Source: an uncultured Candidatus Saccharibacteria bacterium (GTDB taxonomy: Bacteria > Patescibacteriota > WWE3 > JAUXAW01 > JAYEID01). Taken from it: DNA of 31,137 bases. The stretch lies in assembly GCA_964581885.1 (NCBI GenBank), contig CAZOPS010000004.1, positions 1-31,137 on the forward strand, given 5' to 3'. Under the pieces are notes generated by a model, which worked only from the letters and a program-made list of their open reading frames with translations, had not been told where the DNA came from and did not search any database. The position numbers were made by a program, and so were the translations under genes. Shown in pieces: positions 2,249-15,464 of the stretch (its first letter is position 1; each line of letters opens with the position of its first letter).

Positions 2249-3634
2249 ATGAGAATTATTTTTCTTTCCAACCAACTTTTTGATTATCCGCTTAAAACCA
2301 ACAAGTGGCATGTTGCTACCCGGGTAGCTGATCGGGGGCATAAGGTGCTTTTCGTTGACCCGCCAATCCGTTTCCGGAAAGTAGTAAAGCAGATTTTCCA
2401 AGGGAGGTGGCCGCTCCAACGTTTATTGTCAGGTGTTTGTGCCCCGACCGGCAATTCCCTAAAGCCAGGTTCTGGGACCGGTCTTAGAACCTGGCTTTTA
2501 TCCTTGCCGGCCGTTAATTTAAAAGTTTTCACGCCACTAACGCAGACCATCTCCGAATCTCCGAACATGACAACTTTCAATGTTAACCGTATGAAACTGC
2601 ACATCCCTGATTTTTTTGATGGTGAAGCAATCCTGTGGGTTTACAATCCAGCAATGATTGACTATATTGATCGGATTCCGCATAGACTGCTGGTTTATGA
2701 TTGTGTGGATGATTATCCCTCTATGGCTAATTATCAGCGTTTGGGTTTTTCTGAAGAAATTGCGGAAAGGGAAGAAAAGATTGCGAAAAGAGCAGATATT
2801 ATTTTTACAACTACTAAGAATTTAGCTAATAAAATTCGTAAGTGGAATGATAATGTTCATTATGTAGGTAATGCGGGAGACTACAGCCGCTTTGCTTCTG
2901 CGGCCAAAGCGGAAATTACAAATAACCCCCCTTCGCTAAACCTGCCTGCCGGCGAGGCAGGGCTACGGGGGGCAGGCAAATTAAAAATTTCAAATGAGGA
3001 AAAGAGGAGAGCCGGCAAGGAAAAACCGCCGCAGGAGAAGCCCCTGGGGCTAGATCCGCAGAAACCCCTAGGGCTGGGGAATGCGGCGGTTCTTAAAGAC
3101 ATACCCCACCCCTGCATAGGCTTTACGGGAGCAATTGACGATTACAAAGTGAACCTTTCTCTTCTTGTAAAAATTGCAAAAGACCATCCGGAAAAGTCTT
3201 TGGTTTTAGTGGGACCAACTGGAGTAGCAGATACCCAGCCTGATTTGCGTGACTTGAAAAAGCTGGACAACGTTTATTTTATGGGAAAACGACCTTATGA
3301 AGAAATGCCCCAATTCCATGCCAGCTTTGATGTTTTTATAATTCCCTATAATTTGAATGACTATACCGTCAAAGGTTGCTTTCCGGTTAAGTTTTTGAAT
3401 GCTCTTGCTGCGGGGTTGCCTGTTGTGGTTACTAACCTTCCCGCTTATGAGGATTTTTCGGATGTGGCTTATATTGCGGGGGATGACGAGAAATTCAGTA
3501 AAACAATTGATAAAGCTCTGAATGAAAATAATCAGGAAAAGGTGGAAGAACGGATGCGTGTGGCTCGTGAAAATTCTTGGAACAATAAGGTAGAAAAAAT
3601 GCTCCAGCTTGTTTCTTCTCAGCTTTCTGCTTAG
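2249..3634 (+). CDS. GT-B (GT4/TuaH-like) glycosyltransferase with in-frame palindromic insertions
   Basis: Motifs LLVYDCVDDY, ADIIFTT, IGFTGAIDDYKV, FPVKFLNALAAGLPVV. Confidence 0.85.
   Translation: MRIIFLSNQLFDYPLKTNKWHVATRVADRGHKVLFVDPPIRFRKVVKQIFQGRWPLQRLLSGVCAPTGNSLKPGSGTGLRTWLLSLPAVNLKVFTPLTQTISESPNMTTFNVNRMKLHIPDFFDGEAILWVYNPAMIDYIDRIPHRLLVYDCVDDYPSMANYQRLGFSEEIAEREEKIAKRADIIFTTTKNLANKIRKWNDNVHYVGNAGDYSRFASAAKAEITNNPPSLNLPAGEAGLRGAGKLKISNEEKRRAGKEKPPQEKPLGLDPQKPLGLGNAAVLKDIPHPCIGFTGAIDDYKVNLSLLVKIAKDHPEKSLVLVGPTGVADTQPDLRDLKKLDNVYFMGKRPYEEMPQFHASFDVFIIPYNLNDYTVKGCFPVKFLNALAAGLPVVVTNLPAYEDFSDVAYIAGDDEKFSKTIDKALNENNQEKVEERMRVARENSWNNKVEKMLQLVSSQLSA
2448..2510 (+). repeat. Hairpin element family H1, copy A (in-frame)
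   Basis: ttccct-AAAGCCAGGTTCT-gggaccggtctt-AGAACCTGGCTTT-tatcc; perfect 13-bp stem plus outer stem ccggcaa/ttgccgg. Confidence 0.9.
2941..2961. repeat. CCTGCC-type palindrome (in-frame, nested)
   Basis: cctgcctgccggcgaggcagg; related copies at 24097 and 28078. Confidence 0.85.
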
Positions 3635-3721
3635 TTGTTGTTTTGCTTCTGGTTCCTATATAGGATATAATTTAGCTTACGTGCTATTCATTGCTGGGTA
3701 TATGATTAAGGAGGTGAGCTG

Positions 3722-4195
3722 GTGACTGACGAGAATGTGGATAAAATAATTACTTTGATGGAGGAGTATGATTTCGAGACTGCTTTGGAGGAAGCTCGAG
3801 CATTTTTGAGAGTTACAGAAGACCCGAAGAAGAAAGCAGAACTTTACCTTTTGGTTTCTTCTTTGTCAGAACTTGTGGGAGACAGGGAAACATACGGTTC
3901 AGCATTGTTTGGGGCGCTGGCTATTTTCAGGACTTTAGGTAATGTTGAGGAGGTAGCGCACACTCTGATTCTTATTGGCCGGGCACAGTTGGAGAGCGAC
4001 TTGGTTGATGAGGGCATAAACTATTGTGTAGAAGCACTGAAAATTGCTTTGCACAATGAAGAGATATATAGAGTGCAGCTCCCGCTTATTACCCAGGTTT
4101 TGGGAAATGCTTTCTCAGAGCGTGACCCGTGGCTTTCGGCAGAGTTTCGAAAGTTTGGTTCTCGAATTGAAAAGGAATATGGCAAGGAGGACTAG
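3722..4195 (+). CDS. Hypothetical TPR-like helical protein
   Basis: Helical repeat pattern (AELYLLVSSL, ALAIFRTLGNVEEVAHTLILIGRA); strong SD AAGGAGGTGA upstream of a GTG start. Confidence 0.6.
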   Translation: MTDENVDKIITLMEEYDFETALEEARAFLRVTEDPKKKAELYLLVSSLSELVGDRETYGSALFGALAIFRTLGNVEEVAHTLILIGRAQLESDLVDEGINYCVEALKIALHNEEIYRVQLPLITQVLGNAFSERDPWLSAEFRKFGSRIEKEYGKED

Positions 4196-4474
4196 GTGAA
4201 AAAGAGAAATTTGCAGCGGGTAATAGGTAGTTTAGTAGTGATTGTTGTACTTGTACTCCATTTTGGTGCAGCAATAACAGTTCCGTTGCCTGAACCTCGC
4301 TACTTGTTTTGTCGTGGATTGCTGATTTTTTTAGCAGTCTTCTCTGTGGGTCTTCTGATTACGGCTGCGGATGACCTTTTGGTCAGGAGGGTTCAAGGTC
4401 TTAGCGTTGGCCTAGCGTGTATGCTACTTTACGTTGCTATCTGGGTCAGCGTTTTTTTCTGGTTAAAGATCTAG
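4196..4474 (+). CDS. Small membrane protein (about 3 TM segments)
   Basis: Three hydrophobic stretches; GTG start directly follows the previous TAG, with an AAGGAGG SD. Confidence 0.6.
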   Translation: MKKRNLQRVIGSLVVIVVLVLHFGAAITVPLPEPRYLFCRGLLIFLAVFSVGLLITAADDLLVRRVQGLSVGLACMLLYVAIWVSVFFWLKI

Positions 4475-4489
4475 TTTCCAATTTGTATT

Positions 4490-4529
4490 GAGCGGGGAAG
4501 CTTAAAGGAGCAACCCTGCTCTTTTTTTT
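4490..4529 (+). terminator. Possible intrinsic terminator
   Basis: GAGCGGGG...CCCTGCTC stem followed by 8 T; the loop is long (16 nt). Confidence 0.45.
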
Positions 4530-4575
4530 GGAGAAACCTTTTTTATGTGTTTTAATTGAGTTGTAAGTTTATTTT

Positions 4576-5253
4576 ATGAAAGCTATTGGTGACTTTTTAA
4601 TGGATAAAGGTTGGCGAGCGCGAGAAAGGACAACCCCTTTTTGGTTTGTTGTTTCTTGGGTTTTGTTAAACCTTGCTCGAATAATTTTTATAATTATTGG
4701 AGATGATTTTGGTTATTCTGAATCTTTGAATCATTTGGGTATTCTTGCGAAGTTACGTGCACGTCGTCAAATGCGCTTTGCAATTTCAAATTTTAAAAAA
4801 GCCGAGAGGATAGCAGATAATGCCGCTACCTGGTTAAATTTAGGGGGAGCATTAATGGAGGCCGGTGCGTACGAAGCAGCTAAAGAGCCTTTGAAACAGG
4901 CTATAGAGGCCTACGGTGATAAGCCCGGTGCAAGGGGAAATGCCCGCTCGCACCACGCGCGGACCTTGCTTCGAACCGGTCAAGTGGAACAAGCCGGGGA
5001 ACAGAACAAGCTGGCTTTGGAGGAATTGGAAAAAGGTCGGGGGGAGGAGGACACTTTCCATCTTACGGTTTGGAAAACTTCGGCTCTGATGACCGAAGCG
5101 CGGATCCGTTTTGCTTCTGGGAATTGCGACGAAGCCCAGAATTTAGCCCAAAAAGCTTTAAAATTGGCCAAAGAAATGAGCCTTCCTGAGCGCACCCGGC
5201 AGGCCAGCGAGCTAGTTAGTTCTCTCAGGAGTCTTCAAAAATCTCGCGGATAA
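4576..5253 (+). CDS. TPR-repeat protein
   Basis: TPR-like units (AATWLNLGGALMEAGAYEAAKEPLKQAIE; ARIRFASGNCDEAQNLAQKALKL). Overlaps the convergent ABC ATPase gene by 29 nt. Confidence 0.7.
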   Translation: MKAIGDFLMDKGWRARERTTPFWFVVSWVLLNLARIIFIIIGDDFGYSESLNHLGILAKLRARRQMRFAISNFKKAERIADNAATWLNLGGALMEAGAYEAAKEPLKQAIEAYGDKPGARGNARSHHARTLLRTGQVEQAGEQNKLALEELEKGRGEEDTFHLTVWKTSALMTEARIRFASGNCDEAQNLAQKALKLAKEMSLPERTRQASELVSSLRSLQKSRG

Positions 5254-6199
5254 TATCTTCCAGTTGCGGTTCGTCAATGTTCAAGTCATCCACGGGGAAT
5301 TCTGAAAGTAACTTAGTAGCTCTTTCTGTTGCCTCCTCTCGCGGTACATAAAGAACTGCTTTATGCGGAGTAAATTCCTTTACTTCTCCAATTTTTTCCA
5401 GATCTTTTTCTTTAACATCATTTTCAAAAATTACAACTAGGGTTTTGTATGGCGCATGGTCCTTAATTAGTTTATCAACACGCCCGTCAAAGGCAATTTT
5501 ACCTTTGTTGATCATCATCACACGCTCGCAAAGATTTTTTACATCTTCCATGTAGTGGCTGGTGAGAATAATTGTGGCATTGTGCCGCGTGTTGTATTCA
5601 CGAACGAAATCACGAATTTTTTTCTGCATTACTACGTCCAGTCCAATAGTTGGTTCATCAAGAAAAAGTACTTTTGGCTGGTGAAGGAGCGAGGCGATAA
5701 GTTCACATTTCATTCTTTGCCCGAGAGAAAGTTTCCGAACTTGTACATCTAAAATTTTTTCAATATCTAAGAGTTCAACCAGCTCATCTAGCCTTTTCCT
5801 GTACTCCTTTTCCGGCACTTCGTAGATTTCCTTATTCAACCGGAAAGTTTCTTGTGCTGGTAAGTCCCACCAAAGCTGGTTTTTTTGTCCCATGACCAGA
5901 GAAATTTGCTTTTTAAATTTATTTTTTCTTTCTTTAGGATCAAAATCCAAAATCTTTACTTCGCCTGCGGTGGGGTAGAGAAGCCCGGATAAACATTTTA
6001 AGGTAGTAGTTTTCCCCGCACCATTGGGTCCAATGAAACCAACAAGCTCCCCCTCTTCAATGGAAAAACTTATATCGTTTACAGCTTTAACATTTTCGTA
6101 TTTCCGCTTGACTAGTGCTTTTAAAGAACCTACAAGTCCCGGTTCCTTGTGAAAAACCTTGTAGTATTTTTTAAGATTTTTTACATCAATCGCTACCAT
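5225..6199 (-). CDS. ABC exporter ATP-binding subunit
   Basis: Walker A GPNGAGKTT, signature LSLGQ, Walker B LFLDEPT, H-loop LTSH. Confidence 0.95.
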   Translation of the reverse strand: MVAIDVKNLKKYYKVFHKEPGLVGSLKALVKRKYENVKAVNDISFSIEEGELVGFIGPNGAGKTTTLKCLSGLLYPTAGEVKILDFDPKERKNKFKKQISLVMGQKNQLWWDLPAQETFRLNKEIYEVPEKEYRKRLDELVELLDIEKILDVQVRKLSLGQRMKCELIASLLHQPKVLFLDEPTIGLDVVMQKKIRDFVREYNTRHNATIILTSHYMEDVKNLCERVMMINKGKIAFDGRVDKLIKDHAPYKTLVVIFENDVKEKDLEKIGEVKEFTPHKAVLYVPREEATERATKLLSEFPVDDLNIDEPQLEDIIREIFEDS

Positions 6200-6254
6200 A
6201 AGACAAATTGTAACACATACGTATAATGCCTTCTCTGATAGTGATATTCAGGAC

Positions 6255-6279
6255 ATATTCAGGACCTGGGACTGAATAT
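6255..6279. repeat. REP-like hairpin at the 3' side of the RAYT
   Basis: ATATTCAG-gacctggga-CTGAATAT, identical to 7096-7120. It is preceded by a duplicated atattcaggac (6244-6254) and abuts the RAYT stop codon. Confidence 0.85.
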
Positions 6280-7049
6280 CACTGTGAGGACAGGATTTTT
6301 AGGTATTGCTCTCGCATTTCCTTCTGTTGCGCCTTCTTCTGGTTTTTAAATCTTTTGAACCAACCAAAGTCATCGTCTATGGCTATACTTTCAAGTCTTA
6401 TTGGTTCGAACTCGTCAATTTCAGCTGAGACGAATTCTTTGTATTCTTGCGGATCTTGGACCAGGTTTGTTACGCGATCTGGTTTCAAAAAAGCAATCTT
6501 GTTTGGTCCATTTACATAAGTTGAGAAGCTGGACCAAGGATATTCGATCAATTGATTGACAGACGATAGTCCTAACTTTTTGGGATTTAGATGATGGTAA
6601 CGAGTTAGGTGCAGCAGCTGTTCGTCTGTTTCTACAAGAATGCTTTTGTAATTTCCTTCGAAAAGCCGTCCGCTTCTTTCTAAACGCACATTAAAATAAT
6701 TAGTGTAGGAAAGTCCTATCTTATGCATATAGAAAGCTATTCCCCTTTCTTTTTTTTGTTCCAGGGTTAGGTGATAGTGATTAGGCATCAAGCAGAGGGA
6801 TAGAATTTCGATAGGGGGTTTAATTCGCTTTTTTTCTAACCAAGCGAGTACAGCATTTTTTCCTTGCCTTGTTTTTGTTTGCTTCAAACGTTGTTGTAGT
6901 TCACTATATGGGCAATTGTGATTCAGATAATGGTTTAAAATGGAGATAAAATGTTTGTAGTAGGTTCTATCAAGAAAGATATTACGTTTTTCGATTCCGC
7001 GGTTGTAAATATGATATATGTTTCCAACTTCCAGTGTTCTTCGAGGCAT
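6279..7049 (-). mobile_element. REP-associated tyrosine transposase (RAYT, Y1_Tnp HUH family)
   Basis: N-terminal YHIYNRG...IF, HUH motif LMPNHYHL, G.LFEG.YKS, catalytic Tyr in RYHHLNP, then YPWSS. Confidence 0.92.
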
Positions 7050-7095
7050 TGCAACGTGATTTTAACTTAGCACACAAATTATTGTAAGGACAAGG

Positions 7096-7120
7096 ATATT
7101 CAGGACCTGGGACTGAATAT
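7096..7120. repeat. REP-like hairpin at the 5' side of the RAYT
   Basis: atattcaggacctgggactgaatat, an exact direct repeat of 6255-6279. Confidence 0.85.
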
Positions 7121-7154
7121 TGCTGTTGGGAAGGTTTTTAGTGGGGATGGGGGG

Positions 7155-7946
7155 TCAGGAGGAGGCGGAGTTGTAGTAGCGAAGGGCGAAGTGCCAAAAA
7201 CGATTTGAGAGGAATAGGAGCAATAAAGCTATAGTGGGAAGCCAGATGGACTCCAGAAGTGTGGCGCGGCCTAGCAAAGCCTTTACCGGAATAGCTGCGA
7301 TAATGAGAAGAGGTATTAAGAGCGTGAAGAATGTTAAAGCTACTTCTCCAAAAATTTGCGGGGGATAACGAGAAAAGCTGTAAAGACTAATAAATACTTC
7401 ATGAATTTCGCGGATTTGGGGGAACCAGATTGCGGGAGTTACGCTGATAAACCACAGTGCATAGCAAAGTATTACGCTGAAAAGGATCAGGATAAGATAA
7501 AGAATAATATTTATTAACGACGGGTTTATGCTTAGATTTCTTAGGGCTATTATTAGTAATCCAATTCCGCTAACCAGCGGCGTCACTGAAAAGAGCCGGA
7601 TTAATCGGGTGGAAACATAGAATTGTGATGAAATTGGGAGCAAAAGAGGGAAATCTAGAGTACCTCTTCTTACTTGGGTAACAAGCCTTGCCATGTTTTG
7701 GACAAGTGGGCCAAAGTATATGCCGCGAATTATACTTGCGGTTGCATACAAAAGCAGAACTTCTTGGTAGCTCCAGCCGCCTATAGATGTTATCTGACCA
7801 AATATTATGTGCAGGCCCAAAATTCCAATAGTAACGTTTATTACTTCGGCAATACAGTGCGAAATAAAACTTACCCTAAACATGGATTCTTTAATAAGCG
7901 CATTTTTTATAAATTGTAGGTAGAGTTTTGTGTATTTAATGAGCAT
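7155..7946 (-). CDS. ABC-2 family exporter permease (DUF990/ABC_export-like)
   Basis: Six-TM pattern; GGWSYQEVLLL, VRRGTLDFPLLLP and YPPQIF are typical of this family. Confidence 0.85.
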   Translation of the reverse strand: MLIKYTKLYLQFIKNALIKESMFRVSFISHCIAEVINVTIGILGLHIIFGQITSIGGWSYQEVLLLYATASIIRGIYFGPLVQNMARLVTQVRRGTLDFPLLLPISSQFYVSTRLIRLFSVTPLVSGIGLLIIALRNLSINPSLINIILYLILILFSVILCYALWFISVTPAIWFPQIREIHEVFISLYSFSRYPPQIFGEVALTFFTLLIPLLIIAAIPVKALLGRATLLESIWLPTIALLLLFLSNRFWHFALRYYNSASS

Positions 7947-7997
7947 TGTTTTTTGTTGTCTTTAATGCAGTCAAAGCGCTTTTTTCTCTCGTTAAGA

Positions 7998-8122
7998 GTA
8001 ATCCCAAATCCCGCTTTGCGGGATTGGGATTACGTAAAGCACTCGGTTTAAGAAACCTCGTGTTAAACGCTTCGCTGTAAAGAAGTAGATTCTTGCCTCT
8101 TCGGCAGGTCCAGAATGACTTC
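7998..8122. repeat. Two intergenic REP-like hairpins between the permease genes
   Basis: gtaatcccaaatcccgc-ttt-gcgggattgggattac (7998-8033) and gaagtagattcttgcctcttcggcaggtccagaatgacttc (about 8082-8121). Confidence 0.7.
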
Positions 8123-8134
8123 TATTTGTATTTG

Positions 8135-8929
8135 CTAACCTCCAAAGGCTTCGTGGCGGCGGATGCCAAAATGCCAAATTATTTTTAGAATCACGTAAAA
8201 GGAAATTACCCAGAGTGCTTGAACAATAAGGCCGACACCTATTTGAAATAGATTTAACTTTCCTAAGTAAACGTCAATGGGAAAAGCGTAGAGGTATCGA
8301 AATGGTAATGCGTTGAGAATTTTTTGCCAGGATTCGGGGAAAGCGGAGAGAGGAAGAAGTGCACCCCCAACAAATTTTGAAATTGAGCCAATAAGATAGA
8401 ATAGGCCGCTAATTTCTGTTGTCCAAAAACCGGAAAGACCGATAATAGTAGTGTAAAAACAGTTTAGAAAAAGAGTTAGAGGAATTATGAGGAGGAGTAG
8501 AAGTAGATGATGGGTAGAGGCTGGTCCTATCAGTAAGTTTCTGTATATAACGATTAGCAATAAAAAAACAGGTAAGCTTAGAATAAAATCAGCAAAAACT
8601 CTTTCGCCCCATGATTTAGTAATACGGTATTTTAAATAATGAAAGGGAAGAAGCAGGTAATTATTAATAGTGCCTTCGCCGATGTCGTGAGCGACTCTCC
8701 AATGAGTAGAAACACTAATTCTATCCAAAAGGAATGAAAGAAAACTGTAAGTAACTATTTCATAAAGGTTATAGGTGCTAATTTGTTGACCAGTTTTGTA
8801 GATAGATTGCCAAATTATAATTGTTGTTATCAGGCTGATTAAAGAAAGGAATAACCGAAACAATAGCTTGGAACGGGAAATAATATTTTGTTCAATTGCA
8901 GTTTTTATAATTGCTAGTTCTTTTTTCAC
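8135..8929 (-). CDS. ABC-2 family exporter permease
   Basis: VAHDIGEGTINNYLLLP, GGALLPLSAFP, LPFRYLYAFP and a terminal RRHEAFGG. Confidence 0.85.
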   Translation of the reverse strand: MKKELAIIKTAIEQNIISRSKLLFRLFLSLISLITTIIIWQSIYKTGQQISTYNLYEIVTYSFLSFLLDRISVSTHWRVAHDIGEGTINNYLLLPFHYLKYRITKSWGERVFADFILSLPVFLLLIVIYRNLLIGPASTHHLLLLLLIIPLTLFLNCFYTTIIGLSGFWTTEISGLFYLIGSISKFVGGALLPLSAFPESWQKILNALPFRYLYAFPIDVYLGKLNLFQIGVGLIVQALWVISFYVILKIIWHFGIRRHEAFGG

Positions 8930-8976
8930 TTAGGGAGATTTTAGCACAGCTCTGCATTCATGCTATCATTTGGTTA
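8930..8976. promoter_or_regulatory. Compact divergent promoter pair, probably leaderless
   Basis: Minus-strand TGC-TAAAAT ends 8 nt before the GTG at 8929; plus-strand TGC-TATCAT (8964-8969) ends 7 nt before the ATG at 8977. Confidence 0.55.
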
Positions 8977-10128
8977 ATGAAAATATGTTATGTTTTAAAT
9001 TCAGGCGATCCGGGTGGGGTGGAGCAGCATGTTTTGGATCTTACTCGGGGGATGGTTGATCGTGGTCATGAGGTTTTTGTGGTTTGTCCTTGGGGCGATG
9101 TGGCTAAAAAGTATTTTGAAGCGGGGGCTAAGGTTCGTGTTGATAAGCCAGCACTTGATATTGACCCCTTTTATATTTTGCGCCTTGCGCACTTTCTCAA
9201 AAAAGTAAAACCTGATATTTTTCATGTGCATATGTTGAAGACGACTGGAAATGGGCTGATTGCTGCTTCTTTTTTGAAAGATTTGCCAAAGATTTGCCAT
9301 ATTCATACACCACTACCAGAGTGGCAAATTCCGTGGTGGAAGAAGAAGTTGGACATTTTATTTAACCGTATTGTTACTAATTTTTTAGCTGACGCTGTAA
9401 TTGCTCTTACTGAGTCCAGAAAAAGAGTTAAAGTTGAGGGGGAAGGAATTAGCTCCGAGAAGATTAGGGTTATTCCTAATGGAGTAGACGTAGGGAATAT
9501 CAAATTATCCTTCGACCAAGCTCAGGACGGGCAAATTTCAAATGATAAATCGAAACACCGGCAGAAACTAGGGATTTCGGAGGATGCGGTTTTGGTGGGG
9601 ACGCTGTCTCGGTTGACTGTGGAAAAAGGTCTTGAGTATCTAACCGCAGCATTGTCTAAATTGTCTTCCGACCAAATACAAGATACTAAATACCAAATAC
9701 TAATTGGTGGGTCGGGAAAGTTAAAAGAAAAACTTGAAAGACAAGTTAAGGATTTAAGTATTGATGACAAAATCAGGTTTCTCGGTTTTATTCCTGAGGA
9801 CGAAAAGTGGGAATACTTAGACGCCTTGGATATTTTTGTTTTTCCTTCGATTGCTGAAGGTTTTGGCATTTCTTTAATTGAAGCTATGGCAGCTGGCTGT
9901 GCTTGTTTGGCGTCTGATTTAGAAGTTCTTTGGGAGGTGGGCGGGGGGGCGGTTGAGTTTTTTAAGGTTGGTGATCCCGGTGATCTAGCAGAAAAACTTG
10001 GTGATTTAATTAAGAACAAAGAAAGAAGGGAAAAATTAGGCCGTCGTGCTGGAAAGAGAGTAGAAAAAGAGTTTTCGCTGAAGAAGTTTTGGGATAATTA
10101 CGAAGATCTTTATAAAGAGCTAAGTTAA
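8977..10128 (+). CDS. GT4 glycosyltransferase with in-frame repeat insertions
   Basis: MKICYVLNSGDPGGVEQHV, IPNGVD, FVFPSIAEGFGISLIEAMAAG. Start moved from 8911 to 8977 because the longer ORF overlaps a divergent gene. Confidence 0.92.
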   Translation: MKICYVLNSGDPGGVEQHVLDLTRGMVDRGHEVFVVCPWGDVAKKYFEAGAKVRVDKPALDIDPFYILRLAHFLKKVKPDIFHVHMLKTTGNGLIAASFLKDLPKICHIHTPLPEWQIPWWKKKLDILFNRIVTNFLADAVIALTESRKRVKVEGEGISSEKIRVIPNGVDVGNIKLSFDQAQDGQISNDKSKHRQKLGISEDAVLVGTLSRLTVEKGLEYLTAALSKLSSDQIQDTKYQILIGGSGKLKEKLERQVKDLSIDDKIRFLGFIPEDEKWEYLDALDIFVFPSIAEGFGISLIEAMAAGCACLASDLEVLWEVGGGAVEFFKVGDPGDLAEKLGDLIKNKERREKLGRRAGKRVEKEFSLKKFWDNYEDLYKELS

Positions 10129-10140
10129 ACTTTTCTTGAT

Positions 10141-10872
10141 ATGAATAACAATGAGATAAGTAAATTACATGAATTGGAGAAATACTACTGGTGGCATGTG
10201 GGGCGTGCCTTTATTATTGAAACTTTTCTAGAAAAATTAGAGCTCCTACCTAATCCTGTAATTTTAGATGTCGGTTGTGGTACTGGCGAGACTACAAAAG
10301 CTCTAAGAAACTACGGAATAGTTTGGGGGGTTGATATTTCGGAAAAAGCTTTAGAGTTCTGCCGGAAGCAGGGGTTGCAAAACCTCAAGCAAAGTGGTGC
10401 CTGTGAACTTCCTTTTGATGACAGTTTTTTCGATGCTGTTTCCATGTTGGATATCTTAGAACATGTAGAAGAAGACGAGAAGGCGCTGCAGGAAGTTTAT
10501 CGTGTGCTTAAAAGTAATGGCTATTTGCTTATAACAGTTCCTGCTTGGCAATTTTTATGGAGTGATCATGACGATGCTTTGGACCACAAGCGTCGATATG
10601 TACATGCGGAGTTACGCAGCAAGTTAGAAAGCGCCGGTTTTCAGGTTCAAGAGCTAAGTTATGCGATCATGTTTTTATCCATGCCAATAGTAATTTGGAG
10701 ATTATTTCAAAATATTTTTGTTCAGAGTTCCTACCCCAAGACTTCTTATGTTATTCTTCCTTCTTGGTTAAATAGTTTTTTTATTTTCTTGCTTAAAATA
10801 GAAGCGAAGTTGTTAAAATATATTAACTTACCTTTTGGAGTTTCTTTGGTCTGTTTAGCTCGAAAGAAGTAG
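10141..10872 (+). CDS. Class I SAM-dependent methyltransferase
   Basis: ILDVGCGTG, GVDIS, LPFDDSFFDAV..LDILEHV, VPAWQFLWSDHD...H.RRY. Confidence 0.92.
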   Translation: MNNNEISKLHELEKYYWWHVGRAFIIETFLEKLELLPNPVILDVGCGTGETTKALRNYGIVWGVDISEKALEFCRKQGLQNLKQSGACELPFDDSFFDAVSMLDILEHVEEDEKALQEVYRVLKSNGYLLITVPAWQFLWSDHDDALDHKRRYVHAELRSKLESAGFQVQELSYAIMFLSMPIVIWRLFQNIFVQSSYPKTSYVILPSWLNSFFIFLLKIEAKLLKYINLPFGVSLVCLARKK

Positions 10873-10923
10873 GGTGTTTGTGTTTACTTGTTTCGGATGC
10901 TAGATCTTAATTATTAATTTAAA

Positions 10924-12165
10924 ATGAGAGTTTTATTTCAATCTCGTATAGATTTGTTTGATCGTCGTGGGGGAGATACTGTGCAAATGGAAAGAACTGC
11001 ACAGGAGCTTGGTGATCTTGGCGTGGATGTGGATATTGATTGTTCGCCAAAAAAAGATTTATCAGCGTACGACCTGGTTCATTTATTTAATATTGATTGG
11101 CCAGCTAACGTATATTTGTGTGCAAAAAATGCAAGAGATCACAGTAAGCCTCTTGTTTTTTCTCCTATCCATCACCCTTTTGAGGAAATAGAGCGGTATG
11201 AGCGCGAGTATCGGTTCGGATTACGTAGAATTATTAACACGATTTTTAGAAAGCGTGAGCAGAGGGAGAAGTTTAAAGATTTTTGTCGCGCTTTAGCTGA
11301 TCCCAAGAAAATACCCTCTACTATTATCGAGTTCAAAAGGGGAATTTTCAAAGAGCAGCAGGAGCTTTTGGAATTGGCTGATGCCGTTTTGGTGCAGACG
11401 GATGCGGAGGTGGATGATATTAGGGAGGATTTTGGTTGGTCGACCAAGGGTAAGATAATGGATTTATATACCGGCGGCGAAAGAAAAAAGCCAGGCTTTA
11501 AGAGGCAGTCCCAAAGCCTGGCTTTGGGGAATTCGCTACCGGCTCTCCTGACCGCACCGGTTTACAAGGTAGTTAACGGTGTTGATCGGCGATTTGCGGA
11601 GGCAAAGCCGGATTGGTTTAAGAAGAACTATGGTTGGGAGAATTTTGTGCTTTGTGTTGGCCGTATAGAACCTCGAAAAAATCAGTTGTCGGTAATTGAG
11701 TCCGTTTCGAATGTTAAATGGAAAATGGAAAATGTTAAATTGATCTTTCTTGGAAAGATATCTTGGAGGCATCCGGAATATGCGTTGCGCTTTAATAATA
11801 TGGTTAGGAAATATGACTGGATCAGACACATTGAAAGAATTCCTTATGAAAAGATGGGGGCGGCTTATGCTGCTGCCAAGGTGCACGTTTCTGCAAGTTG
11901 GTTTGAAACTACTGGTTTGGTAAGCTTAGAAGCAGGGCTTGCTGGTTGTAATGTTGTGGCTACTGGAGAGAGAGCACGGGAATATCTGGGTGATTTTGCA
12001 TTTTACTGTGATCCTGGTGATTTAGATTCTATTACTAAAGCGATATCTAAAGCAAGTGAAACCGCTGTTAATCCTGAATTTAAGCAGCATATTTTGAATA
12101 ATTTTACTTGGGATAAAACTGCAGAGCAAACCTTAGCAGTTTACAAAACAATACTTAACAATTAA
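10924..12165 (+). CDS. GT4 glycosyltransferase with in-frame insertions
   Basis: GGDTVQMERT, VGRIEPRKNQ, SWFETTGLVSLEAGLAGC. Confidence 0.9.
   Translation: MRVLFQSRIDLFDRRGGDTVQMERTAQELGDLGVDVDIDCSPKKDLSAYDLVHLFNIDWPANVYLCAKNARDHSKPLVFSPIHHPFEEIERYEREYRFGLRRIINTIFRKREQREKFKDFCRALADPKKIPSTIIEFKRGIFKEQQELLELADAVLVQTDAEVDDIREDFGWSTKGKIMDLYTGGERKKPGFKRQSQSLALGNSLPALLTAPVYKVVNGVDRRFAEAKPDWFKKNYGWENFVLCVGRIEPRKNQLSVIESVSNVKWKMENVKLIFLGKISWRHPEYALRFNNMVRKYDWIRHIERIPYEKMGAAYAAAKVHVSASWFETTGLVSLEAGLAGCNVVATGERAREYLGDFAFYCDPGDLDSITKAISKASETAVNPEFKQHILNNFTWDKTAEQTLAVYKTILNN
11471..11542 (-). repeat. Hairpin element family H1, copy C (in-frame, reverse orientation)
   Basis: Minus strand reads ccggtagcgaa-ttcccc-AAAGCCAGGCTTT-gggactgcctctt-AAAGCCTGGCTTT-tttct-ttcgccgccgg. 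Confidence 0.88.
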
Positions 12166-12199
12166 CCTTAATCATTTTATCTAGCAGTTGGTGAATTTA

Positions 12200-12312
12200 A
12201 TTTCTAATTGACCTAATTAACCTAATTTCTAATTAAGAATCAAATCCCAAATTTTGAAATAGGTATTGGTGATTGTTTAGGAATAATTAGAATAATTAGG
12301 AGTAATTAGTGT
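12200..12312. repeat. Intergenic 9-nt/7-nt periodic inverted array
   Basis: ctaattgacctaattaacctaatttctaatt ... aataattagaataattaggagtaattag; shares two exact 15-mers with 14427-14449. Confidence 0.75.
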
Positions 12313-12320
12313 AATTTCTT

Positions 12321-15300
12321 ATGGATCTTTATCTTCTTTTTGGCATTTTTATATTTCTTCTTGCCTTATTTCTAGGATTTCGTGACCCCAAAAAAGGCTT
12401 TTTGTTTTTGATTTTTCTGCTTCCTTTTAACCACAAAAAAACTCTTGGATTAGTGTCTTGGAATTTAACACCGCCTCGAGTTTTCTTGGTGGGCTTTGTT
12501 CTGGGCTTTTTTATTTATGTCTTACGCAATGAAAAAAACTGGAAACAATGGTTTAGAAGGTTTTGGAAAGATAAGTTTTTTGTCTTTCTTGTCTTCCTTT
12601 GGGTGGTGCGGGGTTTCTCTCTTTTTCGTTCAGCTAATATTGAAATGGGTTTGGGAATGTGGGGTTTTTCTACAGCTGTATTATTCTTTTATATAATTTT
12701 TCGATATTTGGTAATTAGATACGGTGGCAAGTTTTTAAAGCAAGCGAGTGATTTGTATCTAAAACTAGGATTAGTTATAGGTGCTTTTGGGGTTGTGCAG
12801 CTGATTCTTTATGTGACCCAAGAGGTAGTTTTTCTTGGATTGTGGCCAATTGAAGATGGACTGGCTCGGGTAGGAGCTACTTTTTGGGATATTAACCACT
12901 ATGCTGCTTTTTCTGCAAGTGTTGCTCTCCTTTTCTTTGGGCGTTTTATTCTTTCTAGCAACCGGGAAGCTACACTTAATTTTCTAGCCTTTTTGTTTAT
13001 GGTTTTGATGGTGGGACTTACATCATCCCAGAGCGGTATGGTTTTTTTGCTAGTGGGATTTGTGGTAGTTAGCAGTATTCTTCTTTTTAGGAATTACAGA
13101 AAAAAGTATTCTTTTATCTTTGCTTTAGTATTGTTTCTTGTGCTTGCTTCGGGAATATACTTCTTTCGTCTTGGTCTTACTACTGATAGTAATTTGCGGC
13201 AGGTTTTAAAAATTAATTTTACGCTGCGCGACGATTCCGTTGCTTCACATTATCATTTAGCTCAAGGAGCCTTAGAAATTTTTAAGGAAAAACTCTTGCT
13301 AGGTTGTGGTTATGGCAGTTTTAATGAATGCTTTCGTAACACGCCTATTATCGATACTTACTTAGAAAGAGATCCAGTTGGTGAGGCTAGAATACCTCCG
13401 CACAGTATTTGGTTTGGTGCTCTAGCTGAGACGGGGGCTTTAGGTTTCTTTGCTCTCTTAGGTTTGTTTGCTGTACTTTTTCAACGGTGTTTTAAAAACA
13501 TTTTTAAGTCTCAAAATAATTCTCAGTTTGTACAAAATTCTATCTATTTAGGTATTTTATTGGGCGTTAGTTCTGCAGGTTTGGTGTATTCATATAACCT
13601 GTTGTTTTTCTGGTTTCTGTTATTCCTAGTTCAAGAAGAATCTCTTGGGGATGCTTTATCTTTAGCTAAAGTTGATTTTTGGCCCAGGTTTAAGAACTGG
13701 CTTGTTTATAATAAAGAGATATTAATTTTGACCTTTTTAGTATTGTTCTCAGGCACTTTTATGTTCTGGTTTTTGTGGAGAAATGCCCTTATTCCTTGGG
13801 ACGAAGCTATTTATGCGGGCGTTTCTCGCGAACTGGTTGAGGGCGGTGATATTTGGACTTTATATTGGAATCGAGAGCCTTTTTTTGAAAAACCACCTTT
13901 GTTTTTCTGGTTACAAGCAATATCCTTCGTGTACTTTGACTTCAAACCTTTTGCAGCCCGGTTGCCAGTAGCACTTTTTGGGATCTTGGGTGTGGTTATG
14001 ACTTACATTTTTGGAAAAAAGCTGTTCTCAAAGAGAGTAGGCTTATTTGGGAGTTTGTTTTTGGCAACCACAATTCATTGGGTTGCCTGGTCTCGAACAG
14101 CAATGCTGGATGTTCCTGCAGCAGTTTTGATTTTGTGTTCACTTTATTTTTTCTGGGAGAGTTACGTTAGGGCGGCCGATTCCCCAAAGCCCGGCTTTGG
14201 GACCGGTCTTAAAGCCGGGCTTTTATCCTCGGCCGCCTTGTTTGGGGTGTTTTTAGGGTTAACTTTTATGATGAAAGGACCAGTGGCGGTTGTACCGGCT
14301 GCAGTTGCTGTAATATTTTTAGCTGTAAATGGTCTTTTTCGCTTGGTTTTAGAAAGATTGCGACAACCGCAAATTTCTAATGACGAATTTCTAATTTCTA
14401 ATTGGGGAATTGGGAATTGGTTTTTGATTAGAATAATTAGGTCAATTAGATTAATTAGGTCAATTTTTATTCCCTTTCTACTTACTACTGTTTCCTTTCT
14501 GCTAGTTACAGTCCCGTGGCATTGGTTAATGATTGCTCGGCACGGAGAATCTTTTGTGGAGGAATATTTTGGCTATCATATTTTGAAGCGAGCGTCAGAA
14601 AGTATTGAGATGCACGGCCGCCCTTTTTGGTGGTTTAATATTGTGATTAGACACTGGGCTCGTCACTGGTATGTGGTGGGTTTGGTTGCACTTGCTGCTC
14701 TGGTTTCAAGTCTAGTCTTTTACTTCTTGAAGCGGTGGGGGGAGAGGGAAATTAGTCCCTCGCAGAAATCGGGACTGAAATTGAGAAATCTAGTCGCTTC
14801 GCTCCTTGAAATTGAAGATGAAAACTACGAGGCGGAGCTTTTCTTGCTGTTGTGGTTACTGCTGACATTTTTTATCTTTAGTGCTTCGGAGTCAAAGATA
14901 CAGTGGTACATAATACCTATTTATCCGCCGCTGGCTTTATTATGTGGGTGGTTTGTTGATAGGCTGTGTTATTTACTGGAAATAAGCTTCAGGAATTTTA
15001 AATTTAGAGTTTTAAATTTTAAATTAAAAGACTCTTTTATTGGTAATTTGTCCGCCGGTTGGCGGATTGTAATTTCCGGCGCCAGGGTTAGGTATACAGT
15101 ACTGGCAACTGTGGGTATCTTGGTTGTTGGTGTTAGCGGGTTGTTGTACTGGCACCGGATGTGGTTTCCGGAAAATCTTAATAGGCAAGTTGCGGAGCTT
15201 TCCGACCATGTGTGGAGAATTCCTGGAGAAGAGAAGAAATTTTATGTTGCGGATGCTCCTCCACCTCTTCCCATTTTTTATTCCGGTCTTAAGGTTACAA

Positions 15301-15464
15301 CTGTTGCCAAGGATGGGGTTTCCAAGGCGTTGGATAAGAAGCATGTTGCTGTACTTTCCAAGAAGAGTACATATCGGCAAGTTTTGGAGGATGTTAGGGA
15401 GAGCGGCCGGCCATTACCTTTAGTTTTTAAGGAAACGGAGGATTATATACTTTATGGCTATTAA
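12321..15464 (+). CDS. O-antigen ligase/Wzy_C-like domain fused to an ArnT/PMT (GT39/GT83-like) glycosyltransferase
   Basis: N-terminal half: R.GATFWDINHYAAF, TSSQSG, G.GYGSF, PHSIWFGALAETG. C-terminal half: WDEAIYA..SRE, FEKPPLFFW, ARLP, WSRTAMLDVP, MMKGP, K..WYIIPIYP. Confidence 0.85.
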   Translation: MDLYLLFGIFIFLLALFLGFRDPKKGFLFLIFLLPFNHKKTLGLVSWNLTPPRVFLVGFVLGFFIYVLRNEKNWKQWFRRFWKDKFFVFLVFLWVVRGFSLFRSANIEMGLGMWGFSTAVLFFYIIFRYLVIRYGGKFLKQASDLYLKLGLVIGAFGVVQLILYVTQEVVFLGLWPIEDGLARVGATFWDINHYAAFSASVALLFFGRFILSSNREATLNFLAFLFMVLMVGLTSSQSGMVFLLVGFVVVSSILLFRNYRKKYSFIFALVLFLVLASGIYFFRLGLTTDSNLRQVLKINFTLRDDSVASHYHLAQGALEIFKEKLLLGCGYGSFNECFRNTPIIDTYLERDPVGEARIPPHSIWFGALAETGALGFFALLGLFAVLFQRCFKNIFKSQNNSQFVQNSIYLGILLGVSSAGLVYSYNLLFFWFLLFLVQEESLGDALSLAKVDFWPRFKNWLVYNKEILILTFLVLFSGTFMFWFLWRNALIPWDEAIYAGVSRELVEGGDIWTLYWNREPFFEKPPLFFWLQAISFVYFDFKPFAARLPVALFGILGVVMTYIFGKKLFSKRVGLFGSLFLATTIHWVAWSRTAMLDVPAAVLILCSLYFFWESYVRAADSPKPGFGTGLKAGLLSSAALFGVFLGLTFMMKGPVAVVPAAVAVIFLAVNGLFRLVLERLRQPQISNDEFLISNWGIGNWFLIRIIRSIRLIRSIFIPFLLTTVSFLLVTVPWHWLMIARHGESFVEEYFGYHILKRASESIEMHGRPFWWFNIVIRHWARHWYVVGLVALAALVSSLVFYFLKRWGEREISPSQKSGLKLRNLVASLLEIEDENYEAELFLLLWLLLTFFIFSASESKIQWYIIPIYPPLALLCGWFVDRLCYLLEISFRNFKFRVLNFKLKDSFIGNLSAGWRIVISGARVRYTVLATVGILVVGVSGLLYWHRMWFPENLNRQVAELSDHVWRIPGEEKKFYVADAPPPLPIFYSGLKVTTVAKDGVSKALDKKHVAVLSKKSTYRQVLEDVRESGRPLPLVFKETEDYILYGY
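14171..14237 (+). repeat. Hairpin element family H1, copy B (in-frame)
   Basis: ggcggccga-ttcccc-AAAGCCCGGCTTT-gggaccggtctt-AAAGCCGGGCTTT-tatcc-tcggccgcc. Confidence 0.9.

Follow-up and report, generated by a model that had tools for sequence, protein, structure and literature searches.

Palindromic repeats that lie in frame within protein-coding genes were described in Rickettsia as the Rickettsia palindromic elements (RPEs) RPE-1 to RPE-10 (Ogata et al. 2000/2002, summarised in PMC10969869). Likewise, intragenic dimers of repetitive extragenic palindromes (REPs) encoding 20-30 residues, many of them in replication and repair genes, were reported for Opitutus terrae, Thioalkalivibrio and R. 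conorii (Di Nocera et al. 2013, PMC3733652). The present analysis concerns a palindromic element in a contig of an uncultured Candidatus Saccharibacteria bacterium (GenBank assembly GCA_964581885.1, contig CAZOPS010000004.1); the whole stretch analysed, positions 1 to 31,137, is referred to as the window. Its genome (G000) comprises 751 kb in 78 contigs and is 94% complete, and the window is contig C4. An initial annotation had noticed three copies (A, B and C) of a hairpin of about 50 nt in three glycosyltransferase genes and had likened it to RPEs or REPINs, without recognising a described family. The whole repeat unit proved to be longer, about 71-72 nt, and it is quite probably a dispersed selfish palindromic repeat tolerated in frame. 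The full explanation that fits best, and that we consider likely, is a lineage-restricted family of small (about 71 nt) selfish-type palindromic repeats residing in frame in permissive protein loops.

The Rfam scan of the window gave zero family matches, and no published report of REP-associated tyrosine transposases (RAYTs), REPINs or in-frame palindromes in Patescibacteria or Saccharibacteria was found in the literature searched. However, REP dimers that span 20-30 codons within genes have already been reported from other phyla (PMC3733652), and the element is a new family of a known kind, in-frame selfish palindromes being known from Rickettsia and a few other bacteria. Three traits are not reported for the known families: hot spots at which subtypes turn over and copies flip, insertions nested within copies, and a single copy that is strongly conserved. 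With this family the range of protein-coding selfish palindromes, previously Rickettsia and a few Proteobacteria and Verrucomicrobia, comes to include the ultra-small, host-dependent bacteria of the Candidate Phyla Radiation (CPR).

The element resembles RPEs in being a dispersed palindromic repeat in the small, gene-dense genome of a host-dependent bacterium. In both cases at least about half of the copies lie in frame in housekeeping genes unrelated to one another, the open reading frame (ORF) stays intact, the fold of the protein can accommodate the additional peptide, and neither a dedicated transposase nor a target duplication is known. The element differs in size (about 71 nt, half or less of the about 100-150 bp of RPEs) and in phylum, and its sequence is called unrelated on the grounds of phylum and size rather than of an alignment to the RPE consensus. 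With REPs and REPINs (PMC3733652; Bertels and Rainey 2011, PMC3116915) it shares short palindromes that are paired in inverted orientation into a longer hairpin and kept by compensatory changes, as well as Y1 (HUH) RAYT-like genes bracketed by hairpins of a similar kind.

Two further systems are more distant. Long inverted repeats with both arms translated lie in protein-coding genes of Nematomorpha mitochondria; these repeats of animal mitochondria reach 284 bp (PMC6649704) and are not known as a dispersed multi-copy family, the likeness being one of analogy. [quoted passage not shown] No parent insertion sequence with ends matching the element was found in a search confined to RAYT-like genes.

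Structure and covariation of the element

Copy A (2444-2514, + strand) is a full two-tier palindrome that scores 87.4 bits with the covariance model and folds at -40.5 kcal/mol (z -6.9). Copy B (14169-14239, + strand) is likewise a full palindrome (95.1 bits, -49 kcal/mol), while copy C (11471-11542, - strand; 85.7 bits) represents a subfamily with a 13-nt loop. In these three copies a GC-rich, variable but always paired outer stem of 7-11 bp is followed by a conserved asymmetric internal loop of the TTCCCC/TATCC type, in which TTCCC(C/T) (5') and T(A/T)TCC (3') stay unpaired. Next comes a perfect inner stem of 13 bp, closed by a quasi-palindromic hairpin loop of 12 or 13 nt that starts with GGGAC. 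RPEs have no such two-tier layout with a hypervariable outer stem. The RNA folds of copies A, B and C range from -40 to -49 kcal/mol (z -6 to -7), and across the copies of the family the z-scores range from -4.5 to -6.9; the canonical strand folds 0-5 kcal/mol better, via G-U pairs. Motif matches in the window numbered 7 (both strands of 3 palindromic sites), compared with 0.06 expected from shuffles.

As the initial annotation had stated, copies A and B differ at three stem positions, all of them compensatory, and have the identical 12-nt loop GGGACCGGTCTT, while copy C mixes the alleles of A and B and keeps the 13-bp inner stem perfect. The outer stems had been called unrelated. Each copy does have its own outer stem, but a proximal G-C-(C/G)-(G/A)-A motif is common to them; the outer stem of copy C contains an internal mismatch.

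The two inner arms of 13 nt form an inverted pair separated by a 12-13-nt spacer, and each arm alone is a small REP-type palindrome of the type A-NNNCC-N-GGNNN-T. The inner stem of copy A combines the AAAGCC and AGAACC arm types; its hybrid arms pair solely with one another, and the long hairpin is thereby favoured over two mini-hairpins. A divergent fourth copy (3023-3092, - strand; 37.2 bits; -40 kcal/mol, z -4.7) has the same outer stem and a TTCCCC/TCTCC layout, and its inner arms are of the AGCCCC-N-GGGGCT type.

In an alignment of 12 genomic copies, 95.5% of the cells in the two-helix structure are paired and double changes occur in 16 of the 24 base pairs. None of 500 shuffles reached the observed values of paired cells, double changes or covariation score, and pairing fell to 20-59% when the partner was slid by 1-3 columns as a control. 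The changes in the stems are almost all from one Watson-Crick pair to another, with few G-U intermediates. This pattern is explained equally well by an RNA structure and by a palindrome maintained at the DNA level, whether through templated correction or through selection acting on a DNA hairpin.

Copies across the genome and their host genes

The covariance model, built from the 12 copies and combined with a pattern scan of the whole genome, revealed 13 strong copies (71-95 bits) and about four weaker or partial ones in G000. The weaker matches include the fourth copy of the window, C71:145-212 and C74:777-812, and the motif count adds a copy on contig C23 with a nested loop insertion and a half-copy on C19. 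About 14 of the 17 copies lie in frame within open frames of 229-1049 aa; only the copies on C10 and C71, and perhaps two partial ones, are intergenic. The element is thus mostly intragenic, in contrast to REPs, which are by definition mainly extragenic. The match at C74:777-812 is an empty shell consisting of the outer stem and a TTCCTT/TTTCC internal loop, with the inner hairpin missing; it may have arisen from the two-tier element by deletion or may represent its precursor.

Copy B and the copy in a gene for a thiamine pyrophosphate (TPP)-dependent enzyme on contig C18 share an identical run of 63 nt although the two genes are unrelated, which calls for a common recent source. Moreover, the asymmetric internal loop and the loop sequence are conserved among copies in 11 unrelated genes. 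The C23 copy (C23:7875-8015, L110) carries a heptad-rich (CTTCGCC-type) hairpin of 66 nt nested in its loop directly after GAGAC, and the 648-aa ORF stays in frame. A contig of metagenome run X3 shows a population variant of copy B with 31 additional nt of similar sequence at the corresponding position of the loop (14203/14204).

The hosts were identified with Pfam. Copy A and the fourth copy lie in one gene (2249-3634, + strand) for a GT1-family glycosyltransferase (Glyco_trans_1_4, Glycos_transf_1) of 461 aa, whose homologs typically have 390-405 aa. Copy C lies in another GT1-family gene (10924-12165, + strand), encoding 413 aa compared with typically 372-380 aa in homologs. The host of copy B (12321-15464, + strand) encodes a protein of 1047 aa in which an O-antigen-ligase-like Wzy_C domain is fused with a PMT_2 membrane glycosyltransferase. 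The glycosyltransferase hosts of the initial annotation are therefore two GT1-family genes and a Wzy_C/PMT_2 fusion, but the family is genome-wide, and the gene of copy A carries a fourth copy that had not been listed. Further hosts are RecR (inside the Toprim domain), UvrC, GlmS, IleRS, a prepilin peptidase (peptidase A24), 3-methyladenine DNA glycosylase (MPG; two copies in one 229-aa protein), a TPP-dependent oxidoreductase and a DUF2079 membrane protein. A specificity for glycosylation genes was ruled out, as the hosts across the genome are mostly housekeeping and DNA-repair genes. Intragenic REPs of other phyla are likewise often found in repair genes (PMC3733652).

G000 is a metagenome-assembled genome of 78 contigs, several of which end in or beside copies, and this speaks for an origin of the copies by faulty assembly or binning. 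We regard such an artefact as practically negligible. In independent Logan assemblies of four microbial-mat DNA runs, copies A and C are internal to contigs at 30-47x depth and thus cannot be products of one assembly; orthologous copies are also present in related genomes from other assemblies.

The copies as insertions in host proteins

The comparison with homologs, which the initial annotation had proposed, and with solved structures indicates that the copies are insertions at every site open to comparison and that they are missing from most orthologs. RecR of G000 has 20-24 extra residues relative to the solved Thermoanaerobacter RecR (PDB 3vdp), and the RecR proteins of the related genomes G002 and G005 do not have them. 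Compared with the empty orthologs, the extra 72 nt are the entire palindrome including both outer-stem arms, and no resemblance was seen between these arms and the native sequence. GlmS has about 20 extra residues relative to E. coli GlmS (1moq) that are absent from G005; both the RecR and GlmS inserts fall between aligned blocks of the solved structures. MPG site 1 is empty in G001, which belongs to the same genus, and site 2 is empty in three other genera. For UvrC the insertion is suggested by the span of the Pfam profile alone.

Among the hosts in the window, the insert of copy A is absent from most of the 50 aligned homologs and that of copy C from about 40 of 60, the nearest relatives carrying other inserts at the latter site. 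CPR-wide homologs have no insert at the positions of copies A and C; only the nearest relatives carry inserts there. At the site of copy B the ortholog of G002 has a shorter loop, and G001 and G002 carry other or shorter sequence. No direct repeats that would mark a target-site duplication were found at the RecR, MPG or GlmS junctions.

These inserts inflate and diversify CPR proteins, break metagenome assemblies at the repeats and can mislead annotation and homology-based structure modelling.

Reading frames and encoded peptides

Copies A, B and C were found at the places, in the frames and with the translations given by the initial annotation, and none of them breaks an ORF. Copies A and B are read in sense: A encodes approximately residues 66-89 of its 461-aa protein, and B, lying between two hydrophobic segments, approximately residues 617-639 of its 1047-aa protein. 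Copy C is read in antisense as residues about 183-207 of the 413-aa protein. The frame through the fourth copy is open as well. Altogether three readings of the element are in use, one sense (SPKPGFGTGLKAGLLS type) and two antisense, and their peptides are unrelated. It follows from the three frames and orientations that the conserved unit is a DNA (or RNA) hairpin and not a peptide. The claim that structure rather than peptide is conserved is thereby supported, as it is by the covariation. RPEs, by contrast, are described as encoding a conserved peptide.

The AlphaFold model of the copy C host is of high overall quality (mean pLDDT 91, pTM 0.89), and the insert is its sole low-confidence segment, residues 191-208 having a pLDDT <50. 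The peptide is modelled as coil between the helix 160-170 and the strand 213-215 and is accordingly predicted to form a disordered loop, in line with the surface loop that had been expected. By analogy, it is most likely that the inserts are retained in transcripts and proteins, where they would add 20-25 residues as disordered loops. A search for RNA-seq runs found the sequence in microbial-mat metagenome DNA runs only.

A selected role of the inserted peptide itself, as a protein-level module such as a flexible linker or an interaction motif, might be read from the near-identical SPKPGFGTGLKAGLLS-type peptides that four sense copies encode. We consider it very improbable, given that the same DNA yields unrelated peptides in at least three frames or orientations, that the peptide is predicted to be disordered and that orientation flips between relatives change it completely.

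Distribution and site turnover in related genomes

The covariance model was run on 60 relatives, 4 genomes of the same family and 56 more distant ones. The element is present in all 4 genomes of the same family and in 4 of the 56 more distant genomes, where it occurs in single or few copies, and none was detected in the other 52. Copy numbers vary from about 20 in G003 and about 9 in G001 to 1-2 in G002 and G004. Exact-pattern scans gave just 2 contigs in a collection of species genomes and 2 in JGI metagenomes. Of 18 copies examined in relatives, 17 span open frames, 16 of which are longer than 120 aa within the fetched locus; the copy at L050 spans none.

Orthologous sites are often occupied differently. 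The GT1_C site is occupied in G000 by a copy with AAAGCC arms, in G001 by one with AGCCCC arms and in G003 by one with AGAACC arms, and it is empty in G002. In the G003 copy the shell is flipped relative to the gene and the orientation of the loop is kept; in two copies of G000 (C37 and C2), too, the loop is turned around with respect to the shell. The element at MPG site 1 is antisense in G000 and G003, sense in G002 and missing in G001. The arm types of GlmS, RecR and MPG site 2 differ between G000 and G001, and the AGCCCC-N-GGGGCT type known from the fourth copy fills the RecR, GlmS and GT1_C sites of G001. The site of the fourth copy encodes a subfamily-II peptide instead in the close homolog P0124.

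From these comparisons, a protein site that bears a palindrome appears to become a hot spot. There the resident copy may give way to a different subtype, flip through recombination between its two arms, take up nested insertions in its loop or disappear, and occasionally it is strongly conserved. RPEs differ from the element in this respect, and also in lacking arms that match RAYT-flanking hairpins. The hot spots, turnover, flips and nesting provide a tractable data set on the movement of REP-type hairpins and on RAYT-like re-targeting.

Three side observations were made in related genomes. The copies in IleRS lie at different residues, about 416-438 in G005 (L026:698-765) and about 220-244 in G000 (C2:16711-16782), and judged by sequence they are independent insertions into one gene. 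A CCTGCC...GGCAGG palindrome of roughly 17-21 nt replaces one outer-stem arm beside the TTCCCC shell at the RecR site of G001 (L052) and at the TPP-enzyme site of G003 (L046:2064-2151). In G006 (C21:5118-5730, L029) an inner doublet of AGAGCGAGGCTCT arms is nested inside an outer doublet of AGAGCCAGGCTCT arms; all of it is in frame in an ORF of >560 aa, which holds three model hits within 3 kb.

The turnover also bears on a rival explanation, according to which template switching during replication (quasi-palindrome correction, inverted duplication) creates and enlarges the palindromes on the spot, at fragile sites in protein loops, with the similarity of copies due to convergence or to homogenisation by gene conversion. 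It would account for the different subtypes, orientations and lengths at the same sites across genomes, for the own outer stem of each copy, for the nested loop insertions, and for stem changes that are nearly all double Watson-Crick changes and seldom pass through G-U pairs, a pattern to be expected from templated correction. A weak further hint is that some empty sites hold short sequences like the element ends; at the MPG and GT1_C sites this resemblance is confined to low-complexity Glu/Lys codons, in cases too few to test statistically. We nevertheless think this origin unlikely. Both the 63-nt identical run in two unrelated genes and the internal loop and loop sequence common to copies in 11 unrelated genes need a common donor, and in RecR all 72 nt are extra, with outer-stem arms unlike the native sequence.

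According to the preferred explanation, a selfish-type repeat, copies would have spread through the genome of this Candidatus Saccharibacteria lineage and, the genome being tiny and gene-dense, would survive mainly where they are in frame in permissive protein loops. The idea that such loops are the only safe harbour for repeats of this kind in reduced, gene-dense genomes gains support from this. A further-reaching version sees the palindromes as exchangeable, invertible in-frame cassettes at fixed loops, re-targeted by a hairpin-recognising (RAYT-like) system that swaps, flips and nests them; some copies, such as A, would be under purifying selection at the nucleotide level, the hairpin having a host function. 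The chance that this is correct seems small, but if true it would amount to a site-specific palindrome-replacement mechanism within coding sequence, so far not described.

RAYT-like transposases and possible mobilisation of the element

The window contains a gene for a RAYT-like Y1 (HUH) tyrosine transposase (6279-7049, - strand; Pfam Y1_Tnp 23.2 bits, at the cut-off; NCBIfam REP_Tyr_transpos 39.7 bits), located between ABC-2 permease genes and an ABC ATPase gene. It is flanked by two copies of a 25-nt hairpin (6255-6279 and 7096-7120), and a third copy of this hairpin lies at C10:21105-21127 of G000. With three paralogs elsewhere, G000 has four RAYT-like genes, each bracketed by its own hairpin of 21-25 nt. 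The HxH and Y-x-H-x-N-P motifs are visible in the translations. REP_Tyr_transpos (NF047646) is the only NCBIfam match of the RAYT-like proteins, at 35-40 bits against a cut-off of 80, which places them below the RAYT threshold; a search of the PDB with a RAYT-like protein gave no match. With several paralogs per genome and 2-3 flanking hairpins each, they are more IS200-like than the single-copy, domesticated RAYTs.

The hairpin bracketing the RAYT-like gene on contig C28 contains the exact 13-nt arm (AAAGCT-W-AGCTTT) of three element copies. In G006 a RAYT-flanking hairpin shares 16 nt with the arms of the in-frame element of that genome, and in G027 the single element copy lies 240 nt from a RAYT-like gene. 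Owing to this identity of arms, the inner two-arm core of the element looks like a REPIN. G007 has a REP family of 32 copies cognate to its RAYT flank, mostly extragenic (loci L086-L105), with a core AGAGC-SWS-GCTCT inside a longer conserved hairpin identical to the RAYT-flanking hairpins; this is the classical REP/RAYT arrangement in a Saccharibacteria genome.

That the element is mobile, as the initial annotation proposed by comparison with RPEs and REPINs, is supported by the 63-nt run and by the absence of copies from orthologs; we infer transposition as the way of spreading, a RAYT as the enzyme, and the processes of site turnover. The most likely mobiliser would be one of the RAYT-like Y1 transposases of G000, acting on the hairpin in single-stranded DNA without target duplication. 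Mobilisation by a RAYT-like enzyme is plausible, at somewhat below an even chance.

Two comparisons were set aside. The hairpin of the window gene 6279-7049 differs from the element arms, and a GGGAC motif that seemed to link the two was not counted, as it is just an 8-nt overlap with the loop of one copy. Orientation relative to GC skew was uninformative as a test of strand specificity, because the skew tracks the coding strand and the canonical orientation can flip.

Several observations weigh against a selfish element moved in this manner. No RAYT-like gene flanked by the majority arm AAAGCC-N-GGCTTT was found, and a RAYT match is absent from G003, which has the most copies (85% complete), and from G002 (92% complete). 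Among the 61 genomes, RAYT-like genes occur in 7 of the 9 with the element and in 23 of the 52 without it, which makes the co-occurrence weak. The 13-nt arms sit in an additional conserved shell, and neither its TTCCCC/TATCC internal loop nor its outer stem is part of the RAYT-flanking hairpins, another difference from REPs and REPINs. Unlike these, the element also has no GTAG or CGTC tag, none being consistent in the 12 aligned copies. Both orientations occur within a single contig (+ for A and B, - for C), which differs from the strand-specific insertion of IS200/IS605. No transposition event, excision product, element-less allele or flip variant was seen in four metagenome runs. Lastly, the orthologous copy A of G001 is identical at 57 of 60 nt, compared with about 75% identity and many synonymous differences over the gene; a copy so much more conserved than its gene is not predicted for a purely selfish, decaying insert.

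This last finding, which extends to synonymous sites between the two species (chance about 5e-5, simple binomial), is the main argument for the view that the copies are cis-acting structures kept by the host, for example DNA sites for a host protein or hairpins in the mRNA by which translation is paused or the transcript stabilised, and not selfish DNA. The strong covariation and the better fold of the canonical strand through G-U pairs would agree with such a function. However, either orientation relative to the mRNA occurs, sister-genome orthologs are without copies and show no sign of compensation, and other orthologous sites are rapidly replaced instead of conserved. Together with the patchy distribution, the widely varying copy numbers, the functionally unrelated hosts and the lack of an Rfam match, this makes host-kept structures quite unlikely in our view, and a selfish-type repeat is preferred.

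A second hairpin family of G000

Apart from the element, a second hairpin family with at least six occurrences was noticed in G000. It has an 11-bp stem (T/A)GC(C/A)NTG(C/A)ACC and a 6-nt loop, and is found at C9:17917-17944, C9:18373-18400, C22:10494-10519, C30:4739-4766, C30:4805-4832 and C42:713-740.

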